Source: Deltaproteobacteria bacterium (GTDB taxonomy: Bacteria > SAR324 > NAC60-12). Taken from it: a stretch of 64,000 nucleotides of DNA. This document shows, piece after piece, positions 2,168-52,055 of this stretch. How positions within the stretch are numbered: the first letter of the stretch is position 1; each line of letters opens with the position of its first letter. The notes beneath the pieces are model-generated. The model had not been told where the DNA came from and did not search any database. It saw only the letters and a program-made list of their open reading frames with translations. Location: positions 10,603 through 74,602 of the forward strand of contig JABGPG010000136.1 in assembly GCA_018645085.1 (NCBI GenBank). Reading direction: 5' to 3'. Both the position numbers and the translations under genes were made by a program.

Positions 2168-3796
2168 ATGAAGCGCTCTTTTCCTATGATTTCACTGCCC
2201 CGTACTCTTCACGGGCGGATGTTGCTGTTGATGTCGCTTTTGCTGGGTGTACTGATCAGCATTACCTGGCTACTAGTTTCTGTACTCGTTTCCTCAATTC
2301 TGGAAGAATACATAGGACGTAATGCCTTGAATGTCTCAAAGGCAGTTTCGCTTACTACAGAAATTCAGCAAGGTTTACTCAAGCAAAATTCTACCGAGAT
2401 TCAGCAATATGCAGAATCCGTAAGAAAAGCAACCGGTGCAAAATTTGTGGTGGTTGGAGACCATAAAGGCAAACGCTACAGTCACCCTGTGCCGGAAAGG
2501 ATCGGCAAGTTCATGGTCGGCGGTGATAATGCACGCGCGCTTGAAGGAGGAGAGGCTTATATCTCAAAAGCGGTGGGTACACTTGGGCCTTCGATGCGTG
2601 GGAAAGTTCCGGTATTTGATGATGCAGGAAAAGTGATTGGCGTTGTTTCTGTAGGTTATTTACAGGAAACTGTTGAGGAAGTAACCGCGGATTATCTGCA
2701 GCGAATTTTGCTATGGGTTTTTATTTTATTTTTATTAGGCGGTCTTGGCACATGGCTAATTGCACGGGACGTTAAAATGTCAATCTTTGGGCTTGAACCT
2801 GCTGAAATTGCAACATTGTTCAAGGAACGTAATGCGATCCTGGATTCCATCCGTGAAGGTGTTGTTGCGATCAACGATGAAGGTCGAGTAACCATGCTCG
2901 ATCACGAAGCAGCCAAAATTTTGGATATCAAACCGGAATCAGGAATCGGCACACCTATTGAGTCAATTTTACCGCAGACAAGAATGCTGGAAGTCCTGGA
3001 AAGCGGTGAAGCACAATTTGATCAGGAAATGATGATTGGTGATATTGAAGTTGTGGTTAACCGTGTTCCTATCTGGCAAAATGAACGTGTCACAGGAGTT
3101 GTTTCCAGCATCCGCCGTAAACAGGAAATTGACCGGATGGCACAAGAACTGACGCAAATTCAGGAGTATTCAGAAGCCCTGCGCACACAGACTCACGAAT
3201 ATTCGAACAAACTGCACACGCTTGCCGGTCTGATTCAACTCGGATCACACAAGGAAGCGCTCGATTTGATCGGACGTGAAACTTCCGGATATCAGGAATT
3301 GCTTGGCACATTAGCAGAGACAGTTCCGGAACCGTTATTGTCCGCCATAATCCTTGGGAAATATAACCGCGCGCAGGAATTGAGGATAAATTTTAAACTT
3401 GATCCGGAAAGCCGGATGATTGATTTTCCTGAGAATATCAGTCGCGAAAAAATAGTTACTATCCTGGGTAATTTGCTGGAAAATGCGATTGAAGCGGCAA
3501 AGGAGAATCCTTCCGGAGAACCCATGGTGCAGCTTTCAATGACTGATTTCGGCAATGATCTGATTTTCGAGGTAGAAGATTCAGGTAGCGGAATCGAAGT
3601 TGAGTCGGTTGATTTATTACTGAAGCACGGCTTTACTACCAAATCCGGAGCAGGACGCGGAATTGGACTTTCTCTGGTTCAGCAAAATTTGGAATATCTA
3701 GGAGGTCATTTGACGGTAGTCCGGAGTTCAATCGGGGGGATGCGTTTCACAATTTATATTCCCAAACATCCTAATTCAGCTGGAGAAACAGGATGA
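2168..3796 (+). CDS. Sensor histidine kinase, CitA/DcuS family (periplasmic sensing domain, two TM segments, PAS, kinase core)
   Basis: 542 aa. Two TM helices flank a roughly 140 aa periplasmic domain. This is followed by a PAS-like region, a DcuS/CitA-type dimerisation/His region and an HATPase_c domain (GRGIGLSLV). It overlaps the response regulator gene by 4 nt. Confidence 0.8.
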   Translation: MKRSFPMISLPRTLHGRMLLLMSLLLGVLISITWLLVSVLVSSILEEYIGRNALNVSKAVSLTTEIQQGLLKQNSTEIQQYAESVRKATGAKFVVVGDHKGKRYSHPVPERIGKFMVGGDNARALEGGEAYISKAVGTLGPSMRGKVPVFDDAGKVIGVVSVGYLQETVEEVTADYLQRILLWVFILFLLGGLGTWLIARDVKMSIFGLEPAEIATLFKERNAILDSIREGVVAINDEGRVTMLDHEAAKILDIKPESGIGTPIESILPQTRMLEVLESGEAQFDQEMMIGDIEVVVNRVPIWQNERVTGVVSSIRRKQEIDRMAQELTQIQEYSEALRTQTHEYSNKLHTLAGLIQLGSHKEALDLIGRETSGYQELLGTLAETVPEPLLSAIILGKYNRAQELRINFKLDPESRMIDFPENISREKIVTILGNLLENAIEAAKENPSGEPMVQLSMTDFGNDLIFEVEDSGSGIEVESVDLLLKHGFTTKSGAGRGIGLSLVQQNLEYLGGHLTVVRSSIGGMRFTIYIPKHPNSAGETG

Positions 3797-4482
3797 ACCT
3801 GCGTGTTTTGATCATAGACGATGATGAGCGGATTGCGGAAATTCACCGACGTTACGTTGAAAAAACGGATGGTTTTGAAGTTGTTGGTATTGCCAATACT
3901 CTTGAGGATGCTCAACTGCAGTTGGATGTTCTTGAACCGGATTTGTTACTGCTTGATATTTTCTTTCCGGAAGGAAACGGATTGGAATTTCTAAAACAAA
4001 CGAGGCTCCACCGTAAACAGGTCGATGTGATTCCAATCACTGCGGCGAAAGAAGTCCATTTGTTCAATGAAGCCCTGCATGGAGGGGTTTTTGATTATAT
4101 TCTCAAACCAGTTGTTTTGTCACGTTTTCAAACCACTCTGCAGCGTTATAGACAAACAAAAAATCAGCTTTCAAATATCGATCAGCTTGATCAGCACGAC
4201 GTTGACAGAGCACTGCACGCAGGCAGCAGTGACTTGCATGAATCAGCGGAATTACCTAAAGGAATTGACGGGCTCACTTTAGAAAAGGTGCAGCAGGTCT
4301 TCAGCACCAGACAGAATTCCAGCTTAACTTCCGAAGAAGTGGCTTCACTAATTGGAGCAAGCAGAACCACTGTACGGCGTTATCTTGAATTTTTAGTTTC
4401 CCAAACTATGCTGGATGTTGATGTGAATTATGGAGGAGTTGGACGTCCGGAACGTCGTTACTTCCTGAGGAGAACTCATTAA
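3793..4482 (+). CDS. Response regulator, CitB/DcuR family
   Basis: 229 aa. N-terminal receiver domain (LIIDDDERIAEI...LLLLDIFFPEGNG) plus C-terminal HTH. Translationally coupled to the kinase. Confidence 0.8.
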   Translation: MNLRVLIIDDDERIAEIHRRYVEKTDGFEVVGIANTLEDAQLQLDVLEPDLLLLDIFFPEGNGLEFLKQTRLHRKQVDVIPITAAKEVHLFNEALHGGVFDYILKPVVLSRFQTTLQRYRQTKNQLSNIDQLDQHDVDRALHAGSSDLHESAELPKGIDGLTLEKVQQVFSTRQNSSLTSEEVASLIGASRTTVRRYLEFLVSQTMLDVDVNYGGVGRPERRYFLRRTH

Positions 4483-7100: not shown

Positions 7101-8360
7101 TTAGTTAATAGTCCTTGTTAAAGCAGCTTTAAATACTGGATTATTACTGTCCATCTTCAGGGCGGTTTCGTAGTGTTTTCTTGCTTGCGAAATTTCCCCA
7201 GCTGCTTCAAAAGCTAAACCAAGGTTGTGCTCATCCTCTGCTGTACGTTCGTTTAAAGCTAGCAGAAAAGCAACAGCCTCCTGGTAGGCATTCCCCCTGA
7301 TCAAATTAACCGCAACACTGTTACCATCCTGTACAAGTAATTCTGCCCTTTCTTGATAAGGACTGATTTGTTTGACGTATTGTCGTGCAACTTGTCGTCC
7401 GAGTCTGATTTTCAGCTCCAGTGTAGTTTGCGGAACCTTTGCATTATTTCTCAGGTTAAATCCTCTGGCAAAATATTCAGTTGGGTTTGTAAAGGATAAT
7501 CCTGCACGGTCAATTATTGAAAGAAGTGACTCAGAAGAATCTTCATCAGACTGATAATTATTTATAATTGAGTCCTTTATCTTTAGCGGTAAATGCGAAG
7601 TTACGACTGAACCACCCCATTTCCGGACAAAGTAAGTTCGAAAACTTTGTGAAGGAACTACTTCACTGCCGTCATTTTTTCGGAGCAGTGAAAATTCAAC
7701 TTCCAGCGCGGCTATTTGCTCCACATAAGGTGTTGCTATCACAAATCCTGTTCCGGATGATTCTGCACCCATTGAAACAACTCCTGCCAGCAAAGATTGT
7801 TCGAGCGTGGCGCCTTTGTTTTTCACATTTGTAAAATATGAAAGACCCTCCTCTGATTCAATAATAATTTCCGCATATTTAACTTTTCCATGTAGGACTG
7901 CAATTTCGGACTGATCTGGAAGTGCTACGCTAAATCCTGCTTCCTTTCCGGTTGTGTTTATCAACTGATATGGTGACTGAAGTGAAAGTTCATGTAGCAA
8001 AGCGGCTCTCAGCAAATCAGCTGTGAGGTGCCCCTGTTCATTTGTTGAATTGAATTCGGAAATGGCTGGTTTTAATAATTTTTCTGTTCCGCTAAAAATT
8101 CGCTTGGATTCGGATGTTGCGTCACTTGGAAATTTGATTTGTCCTGATACAGTTTGAAAATTGCCAACCTCAATGTAGTTTATATTTTCAACAATCTGCA
8201 GCGGTGGACGCTCAATTTGAAAACTGACTTTTGGTGCACAGGCCGTGAATAAAAATGCAGAAAGGCAGAAAAGTAGAAAAACGCTGAGCTTTACTTCAGC
8301 GAAGGCTTTCCGTATTTCGGAAGAGGATACGAAATAAATATTTGAGAAGATAAGTTTCAT
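7101..8360 (-). CDS. Lipoprotein, paralog 1 of a tandem family; C-terminal TPR-like motif
   Basis: Signal peptide with lipobox (LFTAC). The C-terminus (NLGLAFEAAGEISQARKHYETALKMD) is TPR-like. It shares the internal block ISPYQERAELLVQDG with the two upstream paralogs. Confidence 0.6.
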   Translation of the reverse strand: MKLIFSNIYFVSSSEIRKAFAEVKLSVFLLFCLSAFLFTACAPKVSFQIERPPLQIVENINYIEVGNFQTVSGQIKFPSDATSESKRIFSGTEKLLKPAISEFNSTNEQGHLTADLLRAALLHELSLQSPYQLINTTGKEAGFSVALPDQSEIAVLHGKVKYAEIIIESEEGLSYFTNVKNKGATLEQSLLAGVVSMGAESSGTGFVIATPYVEQIAALEVEFSLLRKNDGSEVVPSQSFRTYFVRKWGGSVVTSHLPLKIKDSIINNYQSDEDSSESLLSIIDRAGLSFTNPTEYFARGFNLRNNAKVPQTTLELKIRLGRQVARQYVKQISPYQERAELLVQDGNSVAVNLIRGNAYQEAVAFLLALNERTAEDEHNLGLAFEAAGEISQARKHYETALKMDSNNPVFKAALTRTIN

Positions 8361-8401
8361 TAAATCATTCTTAGAATAATATACATAAAATCGGCAGCAG
8401 A

Positions 8402-9553
8402 CTAACGTGATTCAAGCTGTCGCTGTAGTTGAGGGTGTTCACGCCGAAGTCTTTCAATGCGTCCAAGTCCCTGGGCAAAAAGCAGGTTTTCCGGTTCAGC
8501 CTGCCAGGCCTCTCTGTAAGTCGTCTGGGCAAGTCCAAAATCTCCAATTGCTTCAAAGCAAAGTCCAAGGTTATAAAGATCATTTGGATCAGGATTTTCA
8601 GCAGTTGCCTGCTGCAGTTGAGCTATTGCTAAATCGTAAGCACCGGCTTCAATCAAAATTTTCGCATTTGGGAAGCTGCCCTCAGCAACAGGGTAGCTGA
8701 CAACTTTTTCTGTGACGGCAACTCGACGGACAAATCCGCTCGCAATTGAAAGTGCCATATCCGCAATTATTTGCTCAAAAGAAGGTAGGACATCTGCAGA
8801 GCTTTCAATGCTGTCAGTCATTGAGCTTTTCGATGGGGACAAAACTGAGGTGAAACTGTCAGCAATTTGCTGAAAACTTTCTCCGCTCCTTCCGCCAATC
8901 CGTTGAGAGTAAGTTCTAGTCTCAAAAGTTGTTGCGACCACTTCAGTCGGCAGCAAACGGGTCATCTTAATCTCAAGTCCTAATGTCCCGCTCGTTGATT
9001 TGTAAGGCCACCAAACTACTTGATCAACTGTCAGATTAAGGCCGAGACTGTTTCTGGAACGAGGAGGCCGAAAATATTCCAGACTTTCTTTGCTTAAGTC
9101 AACTCCATCTGTACGTTCAATTTCAAGCCAGAGTTTACCATTGATAACTGCGTCAACATTTTTAGTTTTGTAACCGCGTACTGAAACCAACTGTTGAAGC
9201 GCCTCGTCATTTGCCAGCTCCTCAAATTCATCACTAAAAATAACCTTGAAGTACGGAGTTGCGGTTAATAAATTTATCACCCTTGCTCTTACTGAACGGC
9301 TGATGGATTTTTGCTGTTCCTCATTCAGTAAAACAGGATGAGTTTGCCAGACGCCGTTTCGTTCGGTTTTATATTTCAGCATTATCCGGCCTATCTCAAA
9401 TCCTCCTACTGCTACATTTTTTATTTTCCGCGTATTAATTTCTGCAGGTGAGCGGACAGTAAGTGTCGCTTTAGCACAACCTGAAATTAAAATCACGGAG
9501 ATCAGCAATATCAACAATAAATGATTAAAGATATAGTTATTCAAAAATTTCAT
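8402..9553 (-). CDS. Lipoprotein, paralog 2 of the tandem family; C-terminal TPR-like motif
   Basis: Lipobox LISGC and C-terminal YNLGLCFEAIGDFGLAQTTYREA. Homologous to the flanking paralogs. KNVAVGGFEIG resembles the KxxAVxPF segment of LpoB/CsgG-like lipoproteins (tentative). Confidence 0.6.
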   Translation of the reverse strand: MKFLNNYIFNHLLLILLISVILISGCAKATLTVRSPAEINTRKIKNVAVGGFEIGRIMLKYKTERNGVWQTHPVLLNEEQQKSISRSVRARVINLLTATPYFKVIFSDEFEELANDEALQQLVSVRGYKTKNVDAVINGKLWLEIERTDGVDLSKESLEYFRPPRSRNSLGLNLTVDQVVWWPYKSTSGTLGLEIKMTRLLPTEVVATTFETRTYSQRIGGRSGESFQQIADSFTSVLSPSKSSMTDSIESSADVLPSFEQIIADMALSIASGFVRRVAVTEKVVSYPVAEGSFPNAKILIEAGAYDLAIAQLQQATAENPDPNDLYNLGLCFEAIGDFGLAQTTYREAWQAEPENLLFAQGLGRIERLRREHPQLQRQLESR

Positions 9554-9565
9554 TTTTGTCTTTTT

Positions 9566-10864
9566 CTATTTTTGAGTTTGTCTAGCCAATGTTTTAGTTT
9601 CAGCAAGATAACGCCGGATCCGGCCAACTCCTTGTGCATAAAGTTTTATGCCCGGACTTTTCTCGAGTGCAGTAATGTAAAATCTACGTGCATCCTCGTA
9701 ATCTTCCGGGCTTAAAGCTCCTGCTTCATAAGCCAAACCTAAATTATACCAATCTTGAGATTCTCTTTTTTCAGCCGGAATTGCCTCGATGAGCTTCCGG
9801 ACTTTTTGTGATTTTCCTTCTTTGAGCAAATTCCCTGCTTTTGCTCTACCGCCTTCTGCAACCTCGGCTTCAACCATTTGCTTGTATGGAGAAATTGTGC
9901 GGATGAATGATTCCAAAGTGCGCTTCACTAATTGCTGAATCACCTTCCTTTTTTCTTTGGGAGGGAGATCGTAAATATCCGGAATGGCTAATCCTTTTGG
10001 TCCATAGAAAATTTGTTTTGGATTACTGCGTGAAGCTAAAGCAAGCTGGCGGCTAGGTATTGGGAAAATAGGAATTCTAGTGATACTGAGCAGGCTGCCT
10101 AAAGTCAGAGAAATGAGGTGGCTTTCTTTGATGTTACGGTAGGAATCTTTTTCGATAATACTGCGGCCGAAACTGGCTGAATCTGCACGTATTGCCAGAG
10201 TTTCCCTGCTTAAGCCAATCATGTTAAAACTGAAATTAGCCTGAGCAAAAAGTGAAATATTTTTGTAATCGTAAATCCGCACAACCTGGTTTTTAGGTGG
10301 AATAACGTTATTTAAACCTGCGAGCGAAAATGCGGATGAAAGTACCAGCTCCGCCGCATTACTGGCAAAAGTTCCTCTACGGCAAACATATCCACGCCAT
10401 TTATCTAAAGTAATTGCTTCATTTGTAATTGCTGCTGCTCCAGCTGAGGACAGTCTCCCGCTGATTCCACCTGTGCAGGTGGCAAGGTCAGTAAACTGTC
10501 CGTGGTCCACCTCCCCGCCGCTGATGACTTCTCCCTGAATTATCGCAACAGTTTCCTTTTCTGAATCAAACTGGCTGCCGTCTAAAGTATTCACTACACT
10601 GACTTTGAAACGTCCGAAACGATTGAGTTCATCCGCCAGTTGTTGAAGGACTTGATTTTTAATGCCAAGTTTATCATTTGTTTCATCCACCAGATCTGCG
10701 CGGATAAACACTTTTTTTACGTCACGAGGAATGGTAATTCTGGAAGGCCGCTGCACTTCAAACTGTGAAACATTAAGTCTGGTACAGGCAGAGACAAGTA
10801 TTGAGGCACACAGGCATAATAAAAGAGTAAAAGATTTCTTGGAAGATAATTTTGTTTTTTTCAT
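9566..10864 (-). CDS. Lipoprotein, paralog 3 of the tandem family; C-terminal TPR-like motif
   Basis: Lipobox LVSAC, C-terminal WYNLGLAYEAG...RFYITALEKSP and shared block ISPYKQMVEAEVAEG. There is an 8 bp gap to the upstream DUF2851 gene. Confidence 0.6.
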   Translation of the reverse strand: MKKTKLSSKKSFTLLLCLCASILVSACTRLNVSQFEVQRPSRITIPRDVKKVFIRADLVDETNDKLGIKNQVLQQLADELNRFGRFKVSVVNTLDGSQFDSEKETVAIIQGEVISGGEVDHGQFTDLATCTGGISGRLSSAGAAAITNEAITLDKWRGYVCRRGTFASNAAELVLSSAFSLAGLNNVIPPKNQVVRIYDYKNISLFAQANFSFNMIGLSRETLAIRADSASFGRSIIEKDSYRNIKESHLISLTLGSLLSITRIPIFPIPSRQLALASRSNPKQIFYGPKGLAIPDIYDLPPKEKRKVIQQLVKRTLESFIRTISPYKQMVEAEVAEGGRAKAGNLLKEGKSQKVRKLIEAIPAEKRESQDWYNLGLAYEAGALSPEDYEDARRFYITALEKSPGIKLYAQGVGRIRRYLAETKTLARQTQK

Positions 10865-29514: not shown

Positions 29515-32169
29515 TCAATCCAAATCCGGTAAAATTTGTTCTGGAAGCGAAATGCCGCCCAGGTTAATGTAGGCATAGAGTGTACGGTCAATATATTCCT
29601 GTTCACGTCCGCTGTTTGAAACGGTTGTGCCGACATTTTCTGTGAGCGCAAGACGGATGTTCCAGCAGTCAGGCCGGTAATCCAGAGTGAGAGCGCTCGA
29701 ACTTAGACGCCGCCGAAAGGTATAACTGTCTGCATCTAAATTGACTGTTCCGGAAAATCCGAAAGCCAGTTTGTCACTTGCTTCAAAGCTGTTGCTGAAA
29801 CCAAATGTGTTAGCTGCCGCAACATCATTACCAAAAGGTGTTTGATAAGCTTCTTCGTTATTACGGAAATTCACCGATGCTTTGTTATGCGTACTCAAGC
29901 CTACACTTACTGCTGCAGAATATTCTACAACGCGTTTCTGCTGATGGTGATAACGATTGAACAGGTTTATTGAAAATGCGCTGCTGGGTGTAAAAATCAA
30001 GTTAGTACGCAAAGGTAACAAAGGTTGATCTGACTCAGTCTCATCACCTTTAACAGCAGGTCCGACAGGTTGAAAAAACGGATCTTTTTTGAAAAAATCA
30101 TAATGCTGGACAAAGTTCAAACTGGCGAGATTCCGGCTTTTTCCTTCACGTGTTTGACCACCGACCTGACTATTCAGCAGAGGAATTACTCCTTTTTCGA
30201 CATATCCGAGGATGGTGTTTTTTTGCTGAGTAGTTAATTTGTCACCAGTTAACCGAGCTAACTGCTCTGTAAATAATTTCTCAGAAGCAAATTCCTGTCC
30301 CAGAATCAGTGCTAATTTACGAATCAGCACAGGATCCAACTGATTCCTTCTCATTCTGTCCAATGAAAGAGATGTTAATTTAACACTTCGTTCAAAGAAA
30401 CGTCGTTTGACGAGCAGCACATTATCCAAGCGTAATGTCGCCAGTCTACGTGTAGAAACTGTTCCTCCAAAAGGAACTCCGGAAGTGGATGTTTGCCGGA
30501 CATCTTCGATGTAATCATATTGCAGGCGTGGTTTTATCAAGTGCTTGAAACGGCTGTAAATTCCGGAATCTGTCTTAAATGTCCTGGACAAAGTTGTGTT
30601 GATTTCCGCTTTACCGTCCAAAATATTGAAACCGTACGCATCTTCACTTCCAGACACATCCGGATCACGAACTTTGTAACTGGAAATCTTTTTCCCAACA
30701 TTAAAGCTGGCGTTAAAATGTTGGAAAAGCGGAAATTGAAAATTAAGTCTGGGAGTGACGCTTGCACCTTCACCATTGTATCCCTGTACTCTGTAATAGC
30801 GCACAGCAGATCCACTCAAGGAACTGCTCAAAGTTGATTTTCCGGAACGCCATAAAGAGTCACTAAATTGAAATGAAAGCGCTGGTAAATATTGAACTTG
30901 AGTGAGGTCAATTGCTCGGTTTAGGATAGCTAATTCACTGAAGGTACGTGTCTGAGTTGCAGAAAGTGTGATACTGCCTTTTGAAAACTGCCGGTTGATA
31001 TTTGCGGAAATCTGCTGTGCGGTATTAGGGCTTGTACTAACAACCAGTTCGTATTCCTTTTGAAACTGACTGTCACTGTAAACCAGCGCAGAGGCAATCA
31101 ATCGGCTTTGTACGTCTAACTGTTGATTGTGATTAAATTCAAATTTAAAACGTTGCGGATTTAAATCTGCAACTGCTAGCTCTTCGGAACTTAAACTTCC
31201 AGATTCATTTTCAGGATCACGCGGGTCACGTTCAAAAAATTGCTGGTATTTTATTTCACCCCGCATTCCCTCTTTCCAGGCATATTGATAATCCAAACGG
31301 AATCCTGGTCCGCGTCGTTCCACCCAGTCATATGTGAGTGTTAAATCTTGCTCCGGATCAATATTCCAAAAATACGGAATTCCTAAGCGGTAACCAAGGT
31401 CAAATTTTCTCAGACTACTGCGGACTATGAGATATTCCGGAGGAAGGAATCCTGATTGACGACGTTTTACAGTCGGCCAGGCAAGATACGGAAAGTAAAA
31501 AACAGGAACCCCACCGACTCTTAAAGTAGAACTGCTTGATGATGAGAAATTTTGTGAATAATAATTAACTTCACTACCAGTTATCTGCCATGCTGGAGAT
31601 TTCGGATTACAAGTTGTGAATGTACATGTTTTGGCAGTATATTCGTTTTTACCTACTCTGCGGACTTCTTTCGCGGTCATGTATGCTTTGCTTGAAGCAT
31701 CATAAAAAATGGTATTGATGAAAATTCCGGTGCCGTCTTTTATGTTTATTTCCAACTCATCCATCACTGCGATAATTTCCCCTTCTGTTACTCTGACATA
31801 ACCTTTTGCAGTTAATGTGTTTTTTTCGGGATGGTAAAGTATTTCCGTACTTTCCACAGAAATTCCTTCCCATTCAACCTTTGCATTGCGGTAAAGATAT
31901 GTTCCTGCTTCCGGATTATGTAAGTACGATTGTGTCTGAATCGAAAGTTGCGGAATATCCAATCCATCTTGCGCGGAGACTTGAACAGGTATAAAAACAA
32001 GTAAGGCCAGTATCCAAAAAGTAAGACTTGTAAAAGAACTCAAAATGCGAAAAAAGCGCCTCGAGTCTGTGTTGGAACCGGAATGTTGCTGGATTGAATA
32101 TTTTTTAGTCAATGAACGCAAGGGAATCATAATTGGCGGGAAGCGACAAAACATAAAACTGGCAGGCAA
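29515..32169 (-). CDS. lptD: LPS-assembly outer membrane protein LptD (OstA); annotated N-terminus probably too long
   Basis: 884 aa with the OstA N-terminal jellyroll (LTAKGYVRVTEGEIIAVMDELEINIKDGTG) and a large C-terminal beta-barrel. The signal peptide (LALLVFIPVQVSA/QD) starts about 40 codons after the first ATG. Confidence 0.85.
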   Translation of the reverse strand: MPASFMFCRFPPIMIPLRSLTKKYSIQQHSGSNTDSRRFFRILSSFTSLTFWILALLVFIPVQVSAQDGLDIPQLSIQTQSYLHNPEAGTYLYRNAKVEWEGISVESTEILYHPEKNTLTAKGYVRVTEGEIIAVMDELEINIKDGTGIFINTIFYDASSKAYMTAKEVRRVGKNEYTAKTCTFTTCNPKSPAWQITGSEVNYYSQNFSSSSSSTLRVGGVPVFYFPYLAWPTVKRRQSGFLPPEYLIVRSSLRKFDLGYRLGIPYFWNIDPEQDLTLTYDWVERRGPGFRLDYQYAWKEGMRGEIKYQQFFERDPRDPENESGSLSSEELAVADLNPQRFKFEFNHNQQLDVQSRLIASALVYSDSQFQKEYELVVSTSPNTAQQISANINRQFSKGSITLSATQTRTFSELAILNRAIDLTQVQYLPALSFQFSDSLWRSGKSTLSSSLSGSAVRYYRVQGYNGEGASVTPRLNFQFPLFQHFNASFNVGKKISSYKVRDPDVSGSEDAYGFNILDGKAEINTTLSRTFKTDSGIYSRFKHLIKPRLQYDYIEDVRQTSTSGVPFGGTVSTRRLATLRLDNVLLVKRRFFERSVKLTSLSLDRMRRNQLDPVLIRKLALILGQEFASEKLFTEQLARLTGDKLTTQQKNTILGYVEKGVIPLLNSQVGGQTREGKSRNLASLNFVQHYDFFKKDPFFQPVGPAVKGDETESDQPLLPLRTNLIFTPSSAFSINLFNRYHHQQKRVVEYSAAVSVGLSTHNKASVNFRNNEEAYQTPFGNDVAAANTFGFSNSFEASDKLAFGFSGTVNLDADSYTFRRRLSSSALTLDYRPDCWNIRLALTENVGTTVSNSGREQEYIDRTLYAYINLGGISLPEQILPDLD

Positions 32170-45449: not shown

Positions 45450-46106
45450 TTATTGTGGTTGAAAGCTTCTTGTTTGCTCATTACCGCTACAGTAACGTAA
45501 TGTGGACTCCCTGCGGACAGGTTTCCAGCCGACTTCAAAATGCTGTCCCCACAAAGATTCCCTTATTTCCCGGAAGAGCTCAAAACTCTTCGGATCAACC
45601 CAGAAAAAGAAATAGTTTTCTTCCGGAGGATATTTTTTCATCAAACTTTGCAGCAAGCCATCGTGCTGAGAAAGTTGATGCCACCATTGACCTGCTCCAG
45701 GCGAAGCTAAAAATTCCAGACAGTGGGCGTGACCGCTGCCCGTTGTAAGTTTAATTGAGTATTGATTAAGACTGATTTGTTTTGGTAAAGCTTCCTTGCC
45801 TGAAAGGTACTTTTTTAAATTTTGATAAACTAATGCGCGATCCAGATATAAGATACGGTCATCCCTCAGTAAAAATAAAAGGTTGTTTTTCTGAGAAGAA
45901 TGCGACCATGGAATTTTTATTTTTTCAATATTTTCAAATGGTTGTTCTTTTTCAGGCACTTGTTCACTTTTTTCTAAGAGTGAGAACATTGCCATGAAAA
46001 CCGCCAGAATAACCAAGATTCCTACATTGTTCGAGACAATGTCAACCAGAGAGTCCAAGTTTAACAAACCCGGCAAATCACCTAAATATCCCCTTTTTTT
46101 GCGCAT
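45450..46106 (-). CDS. Hypothetical membrane-anchored protein
   Basis: 218 aa with an N-terminal TM helix (VGILVILAVFMAMFSLL). Co-oriented between the TPR gene and spoT. Confidence 0.3.
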   Translation of the reverse strand: MRKKRGYLGDLPGLLNLDSLVDIVSNNVGILVILAVFMAMFSLLEKSEQVPEKEQPFENIEKIKIPWSHSSQKNNLLFLLRDDRILYLDRALVYQNLKKYLSGKEALPKQISLNQYSIKLTTGSGHAHCLEFLASPGAGQWWHQLSQHDGLLQSLMKKYPPEENYFFFWVDPKSFELFREIRESLWGQHFEVGWKPVRRESTLRYCSGNEQTRSFQPQ

Positions 46107-47896
46107 TAATTATCATCTTGCTGGGATTCTTCTTTTTTCTTACTTTGCTGGAAGGCTTCACGAGCTTCTGCTTTCTCTTTTTCATGGAGAGAATGCTGAT
46201 ATTTAACAAACCAGTCAGATACTTTTTCCGCTAAATCCGGACGTTTAATACGGACACAGAGATCCACCAGTTTTTTTAAGGTGCTGTTTTGCGGATCAAG
46301 CTTGATGGCTTCTTCATAATAACGGACTGCGCTTTTGTATTTACCGTTTTTTTCTGCTTCTTCCGCCTGACTAATTTTTCCCTGAACTTCTGCTTGAATC
46401 TCTTTATTTTGATAACTTTTCAGCATCTGCTCCAATTCAAAAGCTCTATTTTCATTTTCCAGCAAATGATTGATGTTGATAGCTTTGTGCAGCAATTTTT
46501 TACTGACAGCAATGCTGAGTGCTTTGTCAATTACCACCGCAGCACTTTTTGGGTCGTTCTTTTTAAGGTAATTTTCTGATGCAGTCAGATATGCAGTATG
46601 TACGGTTTTGATTCCTTCACGTGCTTCTTTATTCTGCCGGTTTATCCGTAAAATACGTCTATATATTTCAAAGGCTTCATCCCAGGATTTATTGTCTATA
46701 TTCAGTTTGGCGATACGAATCAGCAATTCCTGTGATGTGATTTCAGGAACAAGCGGTTCATAAATCTCAAGAGCTTTTTTGGTTCGGTTTTCTTCAAAAA
46801 GTTTGTCTGCATCCTTCAGACAGGCATCGATATGATAGTTACCCTGAGATCGTTCAAGAAGTTTGAAAGTAGTAAAAAAGCTGACACGTGATTGTTGAAT
46901 CATTCCTTTACGCTTATACAGGAGACCCAGGTTTACATTACTGTAGCGGTGATTTGGATTGCGTGCGAGAATGCTTTGAAATGTTTTAATTGCATTCTCG
47001 ATATCGTCTTCAAGTGAAATTGCAAGTACCAGAAAACAACGTAAATCCACATTTTCTTTTTCCCGCATCAGCAAACGTTTGAATACATTCTTAGCAATTA
47101 TTCCTTCCATTGTCTGTAAACAATGGATGCCTAATGTGAAACAGGCTTTGCTCTCTTCTTCACTTTCTGCCTCTAAATTGGAAATGATGTAATTAAAAGT
47201 CTGCTCTGAATCAATGCTGTTTCCCTCAGCTTCTATTCCTTCTTCATCTGCCTTCTTGTCTGTAGCTTCTACGTTATTTGTGTCTTCTTTATCCTTCTTA
47301 TCTGCAGACTCATTTGAATCTGCTTTAACCTCTGTTACATCCTCAGTCTGCTGTTCACTTTCTTGATCCGTTTCTGGAGTAAAATGTTGTTGTATCTCAA
47401 CTAAATATCCCAACTCCTCTTGAATATCAGGCAGGACAAAGTCAGTCAATTTTTCAAGTTCTGCAATTGCAGATACTGCATTGCCGTCCGCAATTTCTAT
47501 TTTTGCGTTTGCTGCAGCAAGATTATAACTCGCGTTTTTAAAATTAGGATCATGCTTCAGACAAAGTTTGTACATGTTTTTTGCATGATTCCAATCATGT
47601 TTTTTACGATATGTGTTACCCAGCAGATTAGCCAATTCTACGTTTTTAGGATCCATTTTCAGGACATTAACACCTAAACTTATTATACCGTCAGGATTAC
47701 CTCCGCCCTGCATTTCCTGAAATAGTTTAGTAACAGTTTCAGCAGCAAGTTTAGGGTCAAGCTCCAAGGCTTTGTTAAACTCAACTGCTGCCCAGTCGTA
47801 AAAGTTTTTTTCCAGTAAACTTTTACCGCGTTCAAGAATTGAATTTAACTCTTTGTTTGGATCGTCCGTGCTGAAAAATTTTTCAAGTATTTTCAT
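46106..47896 (-). CDS. TPR-repeat protein with an acidic central segment
   Basis: 596 aa with multiple TPR-like A/Y/L periodicities (AAVEFNKALELDPK; AKNMYKLCLKHDPNF; AFEIYRRILRINRQN) and a central Asp/Glu-rich insert. Confidence 0.6.
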   Translation of the reverse strand: MKILEKFFSTDDPNKELNSILERGKSLLEKNFYDWAAVEFNKALELDPKLAAETVTKLFQEMQGGGNPDGIISLGVNVLKMDPKNVELANLLGNTYRKKHDWNHAKNMYKLCLKHDPNFKNASYNLAAANAKIEIADGNAVSAIAELEKLTDFVLPDIQEELGYLVEIQQHFTPETDQESEQQTEDVTEVKADSNESADKKDKEDTNNVEATDKKADEEGIEAEGNSIDSEQTFNYIISNLEAESEEESKACFTLGIHCLQTMEGIIAKNVFKRLLMREKENVDLRCFLVLAISLEDDIENAIKTFQSILARNPNHRYSNVNLGLLYKRKGMIQQSRVSFFTTFKLLERSQGNYHIDACLKDADKLFEENRTKKALEIYEPLVPEITSQELLIRIAKLNIDNKSWDEAFEIYRRILRINRQNKEAREGIKTVHTAYLTASENYLKKNDPKSAAVVIDKALSIAVSKKLLHKAININHLLENENRAFELEQMLKSYQNKEIQAEVQGKISQAEEAEKNGKYKSAVRYYEEAIKLDPQNSTLKKLVDLCVRIKRPDLAEKVSDWFVKYQHSLHEKEKAEAREAFQQSKKKEESQQDDN

Positions 47897-48161
47897 GGAT
47901 CTGCTGCTAACCGACTATTCATGTGACTTGGACTGCTGACTTTGGATGTGCTGACAAGTTCAAACATCATCATAACTGATGGTGATCTTATTGTAAATTC
48001 GAGTTTTTAGAAAAAGTTCATCTTAAACAATGATTTGATCATTTTGAAAAAAGTAGTAAATTAGGTAGTCATGAATGATTTTTAGTGTTTTGGTTCTGAA
48101 TATTAAATTGCTGATTAATTCATTGTTTATCAGAAAAGACTTGCTAAAATCAGGCCTGATG

Positions 48162-48177
48162 TGGCATCTATTGTGCA
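48162..48177 (+). promoter_or_regulatory. Candidate sigma-54 (-24/-12) promoter TGGCAT-N5-TGTGCA upstream of the FliN-like gene
   Basis: GG at 48163-48164 and GC at 48174-48175 with the canonical 10 nt spacing. It sits about 120 nt upstream of the ATG at 48299 and overlaps the tandem direct repeat TATTGTGCAGAA. Confidence 0.4.
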
Positions 48178-48298
48178 GAATATTGTGCAGAAATATGTTA
48201 ATCTGGTAAATTCTGAAGTATTTTTCCTTTTGGGTACGGTACTTTAAAGCTAAAATGAAACTGTTTCAAGTGAATTGAAACATCAAAACTGAGGAATA

Positions 48299-49756
48299 AT
48301 GGCAGAAGTATCTGATGATTTTGAAATCAAACTGTCAGCAGAAGACAGTCCGGATGACATTTTAAATGATCAAGGAGATATAGAATTGTTTGAAGAAGAT
48401 CACAGCAGTGATGAGCCTTTAGCTGGGCTGGATGATACAGATTTGGATGATGTCCTCGCCGATCCTGATGATCTGGATGAAGGTGAGATAGACCTGGGCA
48501 TGGATGAGATTGGTGATCTTGTGGAAGACTTAAAGCTGGACGTTGCTGAGGATGATGCTGATGCTGATGCTTCAATTGAAGTAGAAGCGGATATGGTTTT
48601 TGATGAGGAAGAAACAGAAGATGAGACTAATGATTCAGTAGAAAGTTTGCTCGATGAACTTGGAGATGACGATAGCGGAGAACTGAGTCTTACTGATGAT
48701 TCTGCAGATTTAGAAGAAATTGATGAACTTGATTTAGCAGAAAGTTTAGAGTCAGACGCAGAACCAGTTTCTGCTGAACTGGAATCCGCAGAAGAAGCTG
48801 AGGAAAGTTCCGGAGATGACTCAGTAGACTCCGATTCTTCAGATGTTTTGGATATGCTGCATGATCCTGAAATTTCGGATGAAAGTACCGATGAAGATGC
48901 TGAAGATATGGAACTTGGCATGGATACTCTTGACGACACCAAGGATGACGATTTAACTGATCTTGGTCTTGATGATGTAGAGACTGCGGAATCCAGTGAT
49001 GAAGAAATTGCTGTTGAAGATGCTGCTGATGAAACAGAGGAAGTGGATGTTCAGGAAGCAACAACAGAAGATGAAATAACTGATCTTGGTCTTGATGATG
49101 TTGAGACTGCGGAATCCAGCGATGAAGAAATTGCTGTTGAAGATGCTGTTGATGAAACAGAGGAAGTGGATGTTACGGAAGCAACAACTGAAGATGAAAT
49201 AACTGATCTTGGGCTTGATGATGTTGAGACTGCTGAGGCAGAACCTGAGGCGGACGAGTTAGTAACAGAAACAGCTGAGGTAGAACTTGAAGCGGATGAG
49301 TCTGCAGTTGAAACAGCTGAGCTAGAGCCCGAAGCAGAGGTCATTCCTGCATTGGAAACAACAACCGATACTCAAGATGAGCTTGAGGAAACAAGTGATG
49401 AGATAGAAGAAATTGAAATCGATGAACCAGAAATTGAAGTTCAAGAAACACCTGCAATTGATATAGTGGAGAGTGAAATGCCAATTGAATCAGAGGCAGC
49501 AGAGAAAATAGCGGCCCCTTTAGGCTCAGACATGCTGTTAAATTTCAACCATGAAGTGGTGGTCGAAATAGCGAGGACAAGTCTTACCGGCGAAGAAATC
49601 ACACAGATCACTTACGGCAGCATTATTGAACTTGATAAAGTTGCAGGAGAACCGGTGAATTTGGTCCTTGATGGTAAAACAATTGCTCTTGGGGAAGTAG
49701 TTCAAATTAATAATGAAAAACTGGGCATACGTATTGTAGGCGTTATTCAGGACTAA
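48299..49756 (+). CDS. FliN/SpoA-domain protein with a roughly 400 aa highly acidic repetitive N-terminal region
   Basis: The C-terminal about 75 aa (EITQITYGSIIELDKVAGEPVNLVLDGKTIALGEVVQINNEKLGIRIVGVI) matches the FliN/YscQ SpoA domain. The N-terminus is more than 45% Asp/Glu and contains 41 aa tandem repeats. Confidence 0.55.
   Translation: MAEVSDDFEIKLSAEDSPDDILNDQGDIELFEEDHSSDEPLAGLDDTDLDDVLADPDDLDEGEIDLGMDEIGDLVEDLKLDVAEDDADADASIEVEADMVFDEEETEDETNDSVESLLDELGDDDSGELSLTDDSADLEEIDELDLAESLESDAEPVSAELESAEEAEESSGDDSVDSDSSDVLDMLHDPEISDESTDEDAEDMELGMDTLDDTKDDDLTDLGLDDVETAESSDEEIAVEDAADETEEVDVQEATTEDEITDLGLDDVETAESSDEEIAVEDAVDETEEVDVTEATTEDEITDLGLDDVETAEAEPEADELVTETAEVELEADESAVETAELEPEAEVIPALETTTDTQDELEETSDEIEEIEIDEPEIEVQETPAIDIVESEMPIESEAAEKIAAPLGSDMLLNFNHEVVVEIARTSLTGEEITQITYGSIIELDKVAGEPVNLVLDGKTIALGEVVQINNEKLGIRIVGVIQD
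48956..49240 (+). repeat. Intragenic tandem repeat, 123 bp unit x about 2.3, near-identical copies
   Basis: Units start at 48956, 49079 and 49202 (ACTGATCTTGG(T/G)CTTGATGATGT...). Each encodes TDLGLDDVETAESSDEEIAVEDA(A/V)DETEEVDV(Q/T)EATTEDEI. Confidence 0.8.
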
Positions 49757-49764
49757 TTGAAATT

Positions 49765-50706
49765 ATGCTGCACCAAACAGACATCCCCGTAAAACCTTAT
49801 GAGCTGGCTGAAGCTCAATTTAATACAGGACGATTCCACATAATGGACATTGTCTTTCGCAGATGGGCAACTCTCTTACAAGAGACGCTTTATGCGAAAA
49901 TGGGCATGATGTTAGAAGTCTCCACTGAAAATGTGGTAAAGCTGCGTTTTGAAAAATTTTTAGATTCTGTTGAGAAACAACCAATCTATATTTTTGAAAC
50001 TCTCAACCATAGTCGTGGACTTTTACTTGTAGATAAGTCTTTTTTTGATTTAGCACTTAACAGTAAAGCAGAGCCGACTGCAGAAAAATTGTCACTGGTT
50101 CAGATGATGAAAGAAAACCAGCAGACGCTGCTTAAATTGGTAAGTACTCTGATTGATGATTTTGAAAAAAGCTGGCTCAATATTGCAGAAATTGAACTAA
50201 ATCTGAATCGTGTTACCATCTATCCCCGCCGGGCAAATGTGATGTTGCCTTACGAATATTGTTTGGCAGGAAGTGTTCAGCTTAGTCTTGACGGTGTTCA
50301 AACAAGTATCCAGTTATGCCTGCCTTATGCTGCTCTTGTGTCTGTGCTTAGACCGCTTGAAAAGAAGAAAATTATTGAACCTGAATCTATGGCTTATTAC
50401 TTTCCTCAAGTGAAAGAACATTTCAAGTCTTTGCTGGAAAAGACTGAGTATTCGGTTGTTGCTGAACTTGGTAAAGCTGATTTGAGAGAAGTAAAAGGAA
50501 AGTTGGAAAAAGGTCAGGTGCTGCCTTTATTGAATAAAGACGGCCTCGTTACAATCCGGATTAACGGTACTCCAGCATTACAAGGTTCTACAGGGGAATC
50601 CTCAGGGAATTATTCTGTTCAGGTTATACGAGGTACTGAAGACAAAAAACCCTCAGCAATTCAACCAAAAAGAGAATTCAAACAAGTAACGTGGCCAACT
50701 CAGTAA
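49765..50706 (+). CDS. FliM-like protein (CheC-like middle domain + C-terminal SpoA domain) lacking the N-terminal CheY-binding peptide
   Basis: 313 aa. MGMMLEVSTENVVKLRFEKFLDSVEKQPIYIFETLNHSRGLLLVDKSFFDLAL resembles the FliM middle domain. The C-terminal VLPLLNKDGLVTIRINGTPALQG is SpoA-like. No LSQxEIDALL motif. Confidence 0.5.
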   Translation: MLHQTDIPVKPYELAEAQFNTGRFHIMDIVFRRWATLLQETLYAKMGMMLEVSTENVVKLRFEKFLDSVEKQPIYIFETLNHSRGLLLVDKSFFDLALNSKAEPTAEKLSLVQMMKENQQTLLKLVSTLIDDFEKSWLNIAEIELNLNRVTIYPRRANVMLPYEYCLAGSVQLSLDGVQTSIQLCLPYAALVSVLRPLEKKKIIEPESMAYYFPQVKEHFKSLLEKTEYSVVAELGKADLREVKGKLEKGQVLPLLNKDGLVTIRINGTPALQGSTGESSGNYSVQVIRGTEDKKPSAIQPKREFKQVTWPTQ

Positions 50707-52055
50707 GTATCGTTTTTTAATACTGTAGTAAGCCATTTGTCCGGATTCTCTCCGCACTCGCGGAAAAGCTCCAAAGTCTCATCTGCAGGAGTAAGCCCCC
50801 CCTTCGTGTACTGCTCAAAATAAGGCAACAGCCAATTCTCATCTGCTGATCCAAGTGCCTCTAAGGCTTTTTCTACAATGAGTCTACCAGTCTTTGCAAA
50901 GTTTGTTCGATTGACTTCAGAGTGTAGAGCATCCTTTGCTACAGCTTTTTTATAAATCTTGAACTCTTCTTTCGGCAAATCCATCAAGATTGATTGTACA
51001 GCAGCAAAAGCAGTTTCATTATAAAGTAATGCACCAATCAATGCCGGAACTGCGAGTGAATATTGCGGAGCCACGCTGTCAATAACTCTCACTTCCAGAA
51101 TGTTTTTTATTCTGATGTCCGGAAAAAGCATGCCCAGATGTTCTTCCCAGTCATCCATGTCCATTATTAAGTCCGGATGTTTAGCATCTAACAATTGTTG
51201 AAAGCTAAAATCCGTCGTCAGGATCCCCTCTCCATCACGTTTTAAATGATAAGGCGCCGCCTTTAAGGCCCATTCTATGTAGTCCTCCAGACGAAAACCA
51301 GTATTTAAAAAAGCTTCCGGTAGTCCGGAACGTGAATTATCGGTATGCTCCCAAATATGTGAGCGATAAGATAGATAACCACTGGAACTGCCTTCAATTA
51401 GCGGACTGTTGGCAAATATTGCTGTTAAAAAAGGTGAAAGGCGGTTTAGAAAAACAAATTTCCTCTCCATATCTTCTATGGAAGCATAATCAATGCTGAC
51501 CTGTACACCGGTGGAGGCTTTCATCATCCACTGTCCAAGAGAACCTGTATTCAGCATGTGAGGGAACATAATCCGATAACGGCTCTTCGGGAAAAAGGGC
51601 AACTCTTCCAAAGAATGCAGTGGCTGTACCCCCTGAAATAAAAGCCTTCCGCCAAAACCTGAAACGGCTTCTTCCAGCAGCTTTAAGTAGGTCTGCAGAG
51701 AATTATGTGCTTCTAAAAGAGAATTTCTGGGTGCATCTGAAAGCTCAATTTGTCCTCCTGGTTCAATCGTGATTTTTGAACCGGACGGACTCGTAAGTGC
51801 CAGCAGCATGTCTTTTTCAAAAACTTTTTCGAGCGGATCAGCAGAGTCTTTTGTAAGTTCTACTAAATTTTCTAAAACACTGAAAACTCCGGAATCACCA
51901 TCAACAGGTAAAGGGCGGAAACCATCTTCCGAATTATCCTCGTCAGGAATAAAAACGAAATTTTCGTACTCCATGCCGATTAATTGTTTGTCGGGAGTAC
52001 CGGATTCTTTACGGCAATATCCTAGAAAGAGGGATTTTAGGTCGTTATGAGTCAT
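50700..52055 (-). CDS. Glutamate--cysteine ligase family protein (GCS2/plant-type GshA-like carboxylate-amine ligase)
   Basis: 451 aa. N-terminal IGMEYENFVF resembles the (R)IGTEHEKFGF block of plant-type GCL. Overall length fits. Assignment is from memory and uncertain. Confidence 0.45.
   Translation of the reverse strand: MTHNDLKSLFLGYCRKESGTPDKQLIGMEYENFVFIPDEDNSEDGFRPLPVDGDSGVFSVLENLVELTKDSADPLEKVFEKDMLLALTSPSGSKITIEPGGQIELSDAPRNSLLEAHNSLQTYLKLLEEAVSGFGGRLLFQGVQPLHSLEELPFFPKSRYRIMFPHMLNTGSLGQWMMKASTGVQVSIDYASIEDMERKFVFLNRLSPFLTAIFANSPLIEGSSSGYLSYRSHIWEHTDNSRSGLPEAFLNTGFRLEDYIEWALKAAPYHLKRDGEGILTTDFSFQQLLDAKHPDLIMDMDDWEEHLGMLFPDIRIKNILEVRVIDSVAPQYSLAVPALIGALLYNETAFAAVQSILMDLPKEEFKIYKKAVAKDALHSEVNRTNFAKTGRLIVEKALEALGSADENWLLPYFEQYTKGGLTPADETLELFRECGENPDKWLTTVLKNDTY

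Follow-up and report, generated by a model that had tools for sequence, protein, structure and literature searches.

A divergent FliM/FliN switch-protein pair with an acidic FliN arm in the SAR324 lineage

The usual order of the flagellar switch genes is fliM-fliN. Canonical FliM docks phosphorylated CheY (CheY-P) through the peptide LSQ[DE]E[IV]DALL and contacts the EHPQR motif of FliG through a GGXG motif, and the N-terminal region of canonical FliN is disordered (review PMC6700473). Related proteins are FliY of Bacillus and Thermotoga, in which a FliN-type SpoA domain follows a long N-terminal extension with a CheC-like phosphatase domain and a CheY-binding peptide, and the SctQ proteins of type III secretion (YscQ, Spa33, HrcQ), which join a FliM-like fold without GGXG to dimerising SpoA domains in a platform uncoupled from FliG. 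Here we describe a pair of adjacent genes related to these systems but arranged in the reverse order, from a 64,000-nucleotide stretch of a SAR324 genome (Deltaproteobacteria bacterium, GenBank assembly GCA_018645085.1, contig JABGPG010000136.1, positions 10,603 to 74,602; hereafter the window, whose own numbering is used throughout). The fliN-like open reading frame (ORF; 48299-49756, + strand, 485 aa) is followed, after a gap of 8 bp, by the fliM-like one (49765-50706, + strand, 313 aa). Coordinates, lengths and spacing are exactly those claimed in an earlier reading of the window made from its letters alone (the sequence-only reading), which had taken the pair for a repurposed switch-complex or sorting-platform module. 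What emerges is a genuine and well-conserved variant of the FliM/FliN switch pair that has not been described so far and is diagnostic for the SAR324 phylum; it is most likely the lineage's own odd flagellar switch and no brand-new machine. SAR324 ranks with the most abundant bacterial lineages of the dark ocean, and none of its members has been well studied in culture.

Compared with FliM (for example, that of Salmonella or E. coli, PDB 8umd), the SAR324 protein shares the CheC-like middle domain and the C-terminal SpoA domain, collinear from FliM residue ~33 to ~325, the same predicted fold and a gene position beside a FliN-type gene. However, it is 19% identical to E. coli FliM, lacks both LSQxEIDALL and GGXG, carries an extra tail of ~22 aa with an F-x4-W-P motif and is encoded downstream of its fliN-like partner, outside a flagellar operon. 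The partner shares with FliN the SpoA domain (~75 C-terminal aa), the conserved residues V111, V112 and A93, and a disordered N-terminal region, but this region spans 404 aa here versus about 50 in canonical FliN, is acidic, contains conserved islands and lineage-specific tandem repeats, and belongs to a protein of 485 aa where canonical FliN measures ~100-160 aa. Such an extension recalls FliY, and the FliY model NF005995 is the top NCBIfam match of the FliN-like protein; the match, however, is confined to the last ~150 model positions, and the SAR324 extension has neither the phosphatase domain (by Pfam) nor the CheY-binding peptide (by a peptide hidden Markov model, HMM). The middle domain of T. 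maritima FliY is nevertheless a precedent for a FliM-like fold without FliG coupling. SctQ differs in being produced from one gene with internal translation initiation, as opposed to two separate genes in SAR324, and the SAR324 pair is closer to FliM/FliN in both sequence and fold, with no injectisome genes nearby.

The FliM-like protein and its FliN-type partner

Profile searches with FliM (PF02154) and SpoA (PF01052), two of the families to which the sequence-only reading had pointed, both exceed the Pfam gathering scores in the FliM-like protein, which contains the following features.

49813-50349, + strand: FliM middle (CheC-like) domain, residues 17-195 (PF02154, E 1.3e-11, 45.2 bits, gathering score 27)
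50059-50088, + strand: segment replacing the FliG-contacting GGXG motif, NSKAEPTAEK, of variable length and sequence across the family (alignments)
50434-50631, + strand: SpoA domain, residues 224-289 (PF01052, E 8e-7, 29.3 bits, gathering score 23.8)
50638-50703, + strand: family-specific C-terminal tail, EDKKPSAIQPKREFKQVTWPTQ, ~22 residues, with the F-x4-W-P motif (alignment)

Scores of the FliM-like family against PF02154 range from 36 to 50 bits, as compared with 166-232 bits for canonical FliMs, and the NCBIfam model TIGR01397 (fliM), on which residues 9-289 of the window protein cover positions 33-317 of 320, gives 81.7 bits versus a cutoff of 219.6. When a profile of 27 family members is used as the query, Salmonella FliM (PDB 8umd_C) is matched at E 3.4e-25, with profile positions 6-300 collinear with FliM residues 33-325, and the FliM chains solved by crystallography and cryo-EM are matched at E 3e-25 to 1e-10. 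The AlphaFold2 model of the window protein has a mean predicted local distance difference test (pLDDT) score of 81, rising to ~95 over the middle domain. Foldseek ranks first the full-length FliM of solved cytoplasmic rings (C-rings), second the FliM middle domains (template modelling score, TM, ~0.8), and then FliY, CheC and CheX; the SpoA domain matches FliN chains and the C-terminal part of FliM in solved C-rings. The CheC-like nature of the middle domain, also put forward in the sequence-only reading, thus holds at the level of the predicted fold, which resembles FliY, CheC and CheX after FliM, but not at the level of the CheC profile, since PF04509 yields no match at E<0.1. Judged by profile alignment and predicted fold, the FliM-like protein is a homologue of FliM over its whole length.

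The two motifs through which FliM communicates with CheY-P and FliG are where the family departs from this pattern. In a joint alignment, LSQ[DE]E[IV]DALL and FGGxG are found in all eight canonical FliMs (8/8), whereas none of 11 family members has the peptide and only one of the same 11 retains a GG-rich remnant at the GGXG site. Absence of the docking peptide, which had been noticed before, extends from the window protein to 23 of 23 representatives, whose alignment begins at canonical residue ~33; loss of GGXG had gone unnoticed. At the other end of the protein, the F-x4-W-P motif is shared by 17 of 23 family members, as against one of 88 canonical-range FliMs, and F305 within the tail is invariant in 27 sequences; the canonical FliMs of the joint alignment have no such tail. 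The tail has low pLDDT in the AlphaFold2 model and is probably a disordered linear motif.

The partner protein consists of a long acidic region with short conserved islands and repeats, followed by the SpoA domain.

48299-49510, + strand: acidic low-complexity region, residues 1-404 (composition)
48299-48364, + strand: island 1, residues 1-22
48488-48541, + strand: island 2, residues 64-81, IDLGMDEIGDLVEDLKLD
48587-48664, + strand: island 3, residues 97-122, DMVF...SVESLLDELG
48836-48874, + strand: island 4, residues 180-192, SSDVLDMLHDPEI
48908-48940, + strand: island 5, residues 204-214, MELGMDTLDDT (LELGMDxLDDT in the family)
48954-49233, + strand: 123-bp (41-aa) tandem repeat, 2.3 copies, 95% identity (sequence)
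49232-49335, + strand: degenerate 42-bp repeat after the 123-bp tandem (sequence)
49445-49483, + strand: island 6, residues 383-395, a pre-SpoA segment
49538-49747, + strand: SpoA (FliN C-terminal) domain, residues 414-483 (PF01052, E 1.8e-14, 53.8 bits, above the gathering score)

The FliN/YscQ-type SpoA domain is thus located at the C-terminus, as the sequence-only reading had it. Its score against TIGR02480 (fliN), 55.2 bits, falls below the equivalog cutoff of 84, and it aligns with residues 55-126 of E. coli FliN at 38% identity and 73% positives (E 2e-15), as against 19% identity between the FliM-like protein and E. coli FliM. FliN residues V111, V112 and V113 form the FliH-binding patch (PMC6700473). 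The equivalents of V111 and V112 are kept (V467 and V468), as is that of A93 (A449), whereas V113 is replaced by Q469 and L68 by I424; relatives have Q, R, V or L at the V113-equivalent position. By alignment, the SpoA domain of the FliN-like protein displays the conservation of an ordinary orthologue.

Residues 1-404 comprise 84 Asp and 93 Glu (43.8%, slightly under the '>45%' given in the sequence-only reading) but only 4 Lys and no Arg, for a net charge of -173, and contain no Pfam domain. The acidic N-terminus is a conserved feature of the family and not a strain oddity: in seven relatives measured, the acidic region extends over 204-461 aa with 22-44% Asp/Glu and 0-4% Lys/Arg, the total length of the FliN-like protein in relatives is 289-695 aa, and six short islands are conserved among nine clade representatives between hypervariable, repeat-prone spacers. 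Because canonical FliN also has a disordered N-terminus (PMC6700473), the region can be regarded as an exaggeration of a known feature. The near-identical 41-aa repeats described earlier are real, and their copy number differs among near-identical strains; locus L006 (about 9326-9426) has one unit fewer, in frame. In locus L002 (9186-9289), a frame-breaking 103-bp insertion within the repeat causes gene callers to split the ORF and to add a spurious antisense gene. This locus comes from one scaffolded metagenome, whereas five sibling assemblies are intact, and the insertion is most likely an assembly artefact.

Two island segments, LGMDEIGDLV and VESLLDELG, resemble FliM N-terminal and CheZ C-terminal peptides, which prompted a test for relocation of the CheY-docking peptide to the acidic region, as in FliY. 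For 29 partner proteins, an HMM of the FliM N-terminal peptide, built from 29 canonical N-termini, gave scores of at most 0.1 bits, which did not exceed those of 50 composition-matched shuffles of each protein, and this candidate was rejected as unsupported.

SctQ proteins likewise pair SpoA domains with a FliM-like fold devoid of GGXG, so the two genes could in principle belong to a non-flagellar type III secretion system, either injectisome-like or a relic export apparatus, and encode its SctQ-like sorting platform. The FliN-like protein does match the SctQ, YscQ and CdsQ models of NCBIfam weakly (E 4e-8 to 9e-3), and faint 'SepQ_C' flags appear in Pfam. However, it matches FliN models far better (5e-15), and the family profile and fold match FliM over its full length, whereas SctQ-type proteins (YscQ-C, HrcQb) are reached by the profile in the SpoA domain only, at E>1e-3. 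No SctV, SctU, SctR, SctS, SctT, SctN, SctJ or SctC homologues are encoded in the 42 related loci compared in this study (727 kb, with flanks of up to 10 kb per side), and the SAR324 papers searched for secretion or motility terms, though not specifically for injectisomes, never mention an injectisome. We therefore consider an SctQ-type function very improbable. By homology, the pair is assigned to the FliM and FliN families, although two function-defining features of FliM are missing and neither protein reaches its equivalog threshold.

Distribution, selection and flagellar context in SAR324

The FliM-like protein of the window is identical or 53-92% identical to public proteins labelled 'SAR324 cluster bacterium', and exact copies are present, in unchanged gene order, on ocean metagenome contigs of 35-85 kb. 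An exhaustive HMMER search of 1.84 billion representative proteins returned only 285 matches at E<=1e-3, which grade from a short-N family (305-333 aa, 20-100% identity, alignment beginning at the proteins' own residues 2-18) to canonical FliMs (alignment beginning at residues 30-50). Named members of the short-N family come only from SAR324, 'Candidatus Lambdaproteobacteria', which is the aquifer branch of the SAR324 lineage, or unclassified 'Deltaproteobacteria'. In databases, the family bears the name FliM at JGI and mostly 'FliM/FliN family flagellar motor switch protein' at NCBI, with FliM in a few records. When each GTDB species, represented by one genome, was scanned with family-specific patterns derived from an alignment of close relatives, 26 loci were recovered, all from SAR324, Lambdaproteobacteria or unclassified Deltaproteobacteria, with a single locus per genome except for one metagenome-assembled genome (MAG) with two contigs. 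Genomes carrying the pair include FRAM18_bin343 (CAJJCY01, on an 843-kb contig), GCA_902561915.1, GCA_001627845.1 and JCVI-SC AAA005 (AGAU01).

The pairing itself is invariant. In all 42 compared loci, the FliM-like gene is directly preceded by one whose product has a FliN-type SpoA domain at its C-terminus, and the order is always N then M. No flagellar neighbours were found in any of these loci by phmmer with 43 E. coli flagellar and chemotaxis proteins, nor did inspection of the called genes in 10 contexts reveal an ancestral flagellar neighbourhood.

One of the loci (L035/L013; GCA_051382335.1), in which the pair has 39% identity, belongs to 'Deltaproteobacteria bacterium TL4', whose record has no MAG label and which may be a cultured relative of SAR324; no literature linking TL4 with SAR324 was found. 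If TL4 is a culture, direct genetics on the pair would be possible.

Estimates of the ratio of nonsynonymous to synonymous substitutions (dN/dS, Nei-Gojobori method) for the window genes versus six relatives lay at 0.12-0.21 in the FliM-like gene; in its partner, they were 0.03-0.11 over the SpoA domain and 0.27-0.54 over the acidic region. Since dN/dS is below 1 throughout, the acidic region included, both are working genes under purifying selection and not relics. These values bear directly on the notion that the two genes are decaying, functionless remnants of a lost flagellum that have undergone runaway low-complexity expansion, for which one could cite the strong divergence from canonical FliM, the strain-level change in repeat copy number and the frameshifted assembly L002. 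The ORFs are intact in 26 species-level genomes with identities of 22-100%, the folded domains are constrained at dN/dS 0.03-0.21, the islands of the acidic region are conserved, a residue of the tail is invariant, and the L002 frameshift is most likely the assembly error discussed above. Remnants of this kind are hardly credible, and a pseudogene or relic was dismissed because of dN/dS and conservation.

What the pair does has to be considered in the light of flagellar genes in SAR324. Flagellar-assembly genes are over-represented in SAR324 bins yet 'scattered throughout the entire genome' (PMC4782131), and the single-amplified genome (iSAG) SCGC AAA240-J09 from 770 m at Station ALOHA, which has a GC content of 41.5-42.6% (like the window), 0% estimated contamination and 66% completeness, contains 23 of 32 KEGG flagellar-assembly genes (PMC4749706). 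Clade 2B of SAR324 reportedly carries half of the motility genes. The possibility, mentioned in the sequence-only reading as the one that would overturn it, that these are simply scattered copies in a genome with a flagellar gene set elsewhere is thus half borne out. Furthermore, in deep-sea metaproteomes, peptides of SAR324 flagellin are 'frequently detected' (bioRxiv 10.1101/310524), and 'fliM' has been scored in 24 of 24 SAR324 genomes (PMC9031357, supplementary table 2). It should be noted that the claim of flagellar motility genes in all genomes made in the latter study (PMC9031357) rests on che genes and the lone flagellar marker 'fliM'. This marker is probably the divergent, motif-less SAR324 family, so that inferring motility in SAR324 from 'fliM' alone is perhaps unsafe.

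On these grounds, we favour, with a probability of about 0.55, the interpretation that the pair would be SAR324's own strongly derived fliN and fliM, a two-gene operon providing the lower part of the C-ring to the flagellum of a lineage with dispersed flagellar genes. This interpretation is preferred because SAR324 appears to be flagellated, flagella need FliM/FliN-type proteins, and the SpoA domain of the partner resembles that of a working FliN. Several observations weigh against it. The gene order is the reverse of the usual one; the N-terminal peptide is found in 0 of 23 family members versus at least 44 of 88 canonical-range FliMs, and GGxG in 2 of 23 versus 72 of 88; in a clade of 351-aa proteins, 37 aa are inserted exactly where the FliG-contact loop lies; and PF02154 scores are far apart, with both proteins far under the NCBIfam equivalog cutoffs. 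The pair is also present in the che-rich single-amplified genome JCVI-SC AAA005 (L041), reportedly described as 'aerobic, motile and chemotaxic', in which a CheY-P-dockable FliM would be expected. Finally, in a SAR324 metapangenome, 'cell motility' structures occurred chiefly above 200 m (PMC8364033), whereas the pair looks universal.

Much the same evidence speaks for the main alternative, namely that the pair is an ancient paralogue that has lost its coupling to FliG and CheY and now forms a separate cytoplasmic scaffold or sorting platform, with its giant polyanionic arms and C-terminal tail recruiting other partners and ordinary fliM/fliN encoded elsewhere. Loss of both FliM signature motifs accompanied by gain of the conserved F-x4-W-P tail and acidic-region islands, the very low FliM-HMM scores, the variable-length insert at the FliG-contact loop and the lack of any adjoining flagellar gene in the 42 loci would fit this scenario. 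So would the presence of the pair in 24/24 and 26/26 genomes whatever their che content, the che-rich one included, and the reported depth restriction of SAR324 motility genes (PMC8364033); there is also a precedent in the middle domain of T. maritima FliY, which has the FliM fold and does not bind FliG (PMC7355467). The repurposed module envisaged in the sequence-only reading is akin to this scenario, and the domains, the isolation and the missing CheY-P peptide that it reported are confirmed. Isolation, however, weighs little and is no evidence of repurposing, because the flagellar genes of SAR324 are normally scattered (PMC4782131). Moreover, the partner SpoA domain is orthologue-like and keeps most residues of the FliH patch, as a working flagellar FliN would need, and no recognisable GGxG is found in 16 of the 88 canonical-range FliMs either. 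No second fliM/fliN was seen, although no search spanned whole genomes. To our knowledge, paralogous FliM/FliN pairs outside dual-flagellar systems are rare, which counts against this scenario as well. On balance, a paralogous scaffold is possible but not favoured, and we would not put our weight on it. Its most far-reaching form, in which the pair would be wholly non-flagellar, a phylum-wide ancient FliM/FliN-derived cytoplasmic SpoA scaffold of a new kind beside ordinary fliM/fliN that has shed its FliG and CheY couplings and carries arms of about -170 charge with docking islands as well as the F-x4-W-P tail, seems to us rather unlikely.

Several proteins of related architecture returned by the HMMER search deserve mention in their own right. 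P0157 (601 aa), P0222 (555 aa) and P0226 (615 aa) are metagenomic, natural single-chain FliM-FliG fusions, in which a canonical FliM domain (205-232 bits, from residues 11-28) is fused to FliG middle domains, with FliG C-terminal domains also carried by P0157 and P0226. P0240, a giant of 2986 aa, is matched in 12 separate places by the SpoA part of the query (about residues 264-293) and may be a tandem SpoA-repeat protein.

Neighbouring genes and intergenic DNA

The pair is flanked by a divergent operon on one side and a convergent gene on the other, with conserved blocks in the divergent intergenic region.

45450-46106, - strand: gene of a 218-aa protein, its start overlapped by 1 nt by the TPR gene, directly upstream of relA/spoT
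46106-47896, - strand: tetratricopeptide repeat (TPR) protein, 596 aa, with an acidic insert at residues ~172-231 (37% Asp/Glu), divergent from the pair
47968-48055, unstranded: conserved block 1 of the intergenic region that separates the pair from the divergent TPR operon
48130-48176, + strand: conserved intergenic block 2, TCAGAAAAGACTTGCTAAAATCAGGCC.GAT.TG.CAT.T.TTGTG, ~125-170 nt before the start codon
48291-48294, + strand: Shine-Dalgarno-like GAGG, 4 nt before the ATG at 48299 (read from the sequence)
50700-52055, - strand: GCS2 (glutamate-cysteine ligase family 2)-like gene, convergent, with a 7-bp overlap (50700-50706) with the 3' end of the FliM-like gene

The TPR protein with its acidic insert and the glutamate-cysteine-ligase-like gene had both been recognised in the sequence-only reading. 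The 218-aa protein has a hydrophobic stretch at its N-terminus, belongs to no Pfam family and probably spans the membrane. A terminator scan detected no terminator-like site downstream of the pair.

The neighbourhood falls into three synteny types. In the marine clade (type 1), the order is relA/spoT, the 218-aa membrane protein, the TPR protein, the pair, GCS2 and an M50 peptidase. In three very distant lineages (type 2; L014, L015 and L016, at about 7.1-8.4 kb of each, 20-26% identity), rsmG (gidB) is located divergently beside the pair, a conserved arrangement of its own with no relation to type 1; type 3 loci have unrelated neighbours. The TPR protein, suggested earlier as an interaction partner, is linked to the pair in the marine clade only, with rsmG or unrelated genes in its place elsewhere, and was rejected as an obligate partner.

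In an alignment of the 400-bp divergent intergenic region, blocks 1 and 2 are near-invariant among clades with 55-67% protein identity. Block 1 probably serves one of the divergent operons, or both, as promoter or operator, and both blocks (47968-48055 and 48130-48176) are likely to be regulatory sites. A promoter of the sigma-54 type had been proposed for the pair. The corresponding element, TGGCAT-N5-GTGCA at 48162-48177 within block 2, has two mismatches to the pattern; matches of this quality number 34 in the window versus 37.7 expected by chance, and the -24 GG reads GT in sister clades (L007/L008), so that the proposal was abandoned. Reading of the conserved intergenic alignment revealed no convincing sigma-28 element. 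A 12-bp tandem in two copies, TATTGTGCAGAA (48169-48192), is present in the window and missing from sister clades.

The remaining genes of the window are housekeeping ones, including mutS, trpA/B, rpoN, argS, relA/spoT and ispG. The lack of fliG, flhA/B, motAB, che and type III secretion core genes, as first stated from sequence alone, stands up to both tests applied: Pfam scans of the large ORFs detected no flagellar, chemotaxis or type III secretion genes, and phmmer searches of ORFs of at least 60 aa with the 43 E. coli proteins detected no homologues of these genes in the window, the sole match to the set being a CitB/DpiA-type response regulator (3793-4482). Two further regions were noted in passing. 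Adjoining a DUF2851 gene are three consecutive ORFs on the - strand (7101-10864; 419, 383 and 432 aa) whose TPR matches, if any, are weak, and an 884-aa ORF with a TTG start (29515-32169, - strand) belongs to no Pfam family at E<=1e-5.

Proposed architecture and its significance

If the pair is the SAR324 flagellar switch, its two SpoA domains would heterodimerise, as FliM-C and FliN do, in a form like PDB 4YXB, and such heterodimers would make up the C-ring base, serving as docking site for the FliH/FliI export ATPase complex. Rotation would probably not be switched by the classical CheY-P/FliM-N route, given that the FliM-like protein lacks the CheY-P docking peptide; a motor without this input would be consistent with the lack of cheA and cheW in many marine SAR324 genomes. 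As the GGXG loop is replaced by a variable segment, the FliM-FliG joint would have to be remodelled or formed through other residues. Beneath the ring, each FliN-like subunit would extend a polyanionic disordered arm of 200-600 aa into the cytoplasm. We speculate that these arms could form a charged (electrostatic or entropic) brush or, alternatively, a multivalent platform recruiting export or regulatory factors, and that the basic-aromatic tail of the FliM-like protein (F-x4-W-P) could be a partner of the acidic arm or another docking motif.

Should the pair indeed be part of a C-ring, SAR324 would represent a natural experiment, in which FliM has dispensed with both the classical CheY-P docking site and the GGXG-EHPQR joint and the ring comprises perhaps a hundred FliN subunits with about -170 charges each; this would be informative about the ways in which switching, coupling to FliG and export-gate docking can be rebuilt. 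Should it instead be a paralogous module, C-ring parts would, as rarely happens, have been recruited to a non-flagellar job, and motility predictions based on 'fliM' in SAR324 MAGs would need revision. In either case, the family can be annotated by a simple signature: a FliM-like protein with no N-terminal peptide, no GGXG and an F-x4-W-P tail, encoded downstream of a FliN partner with an acidic, intrinsically disordered region.

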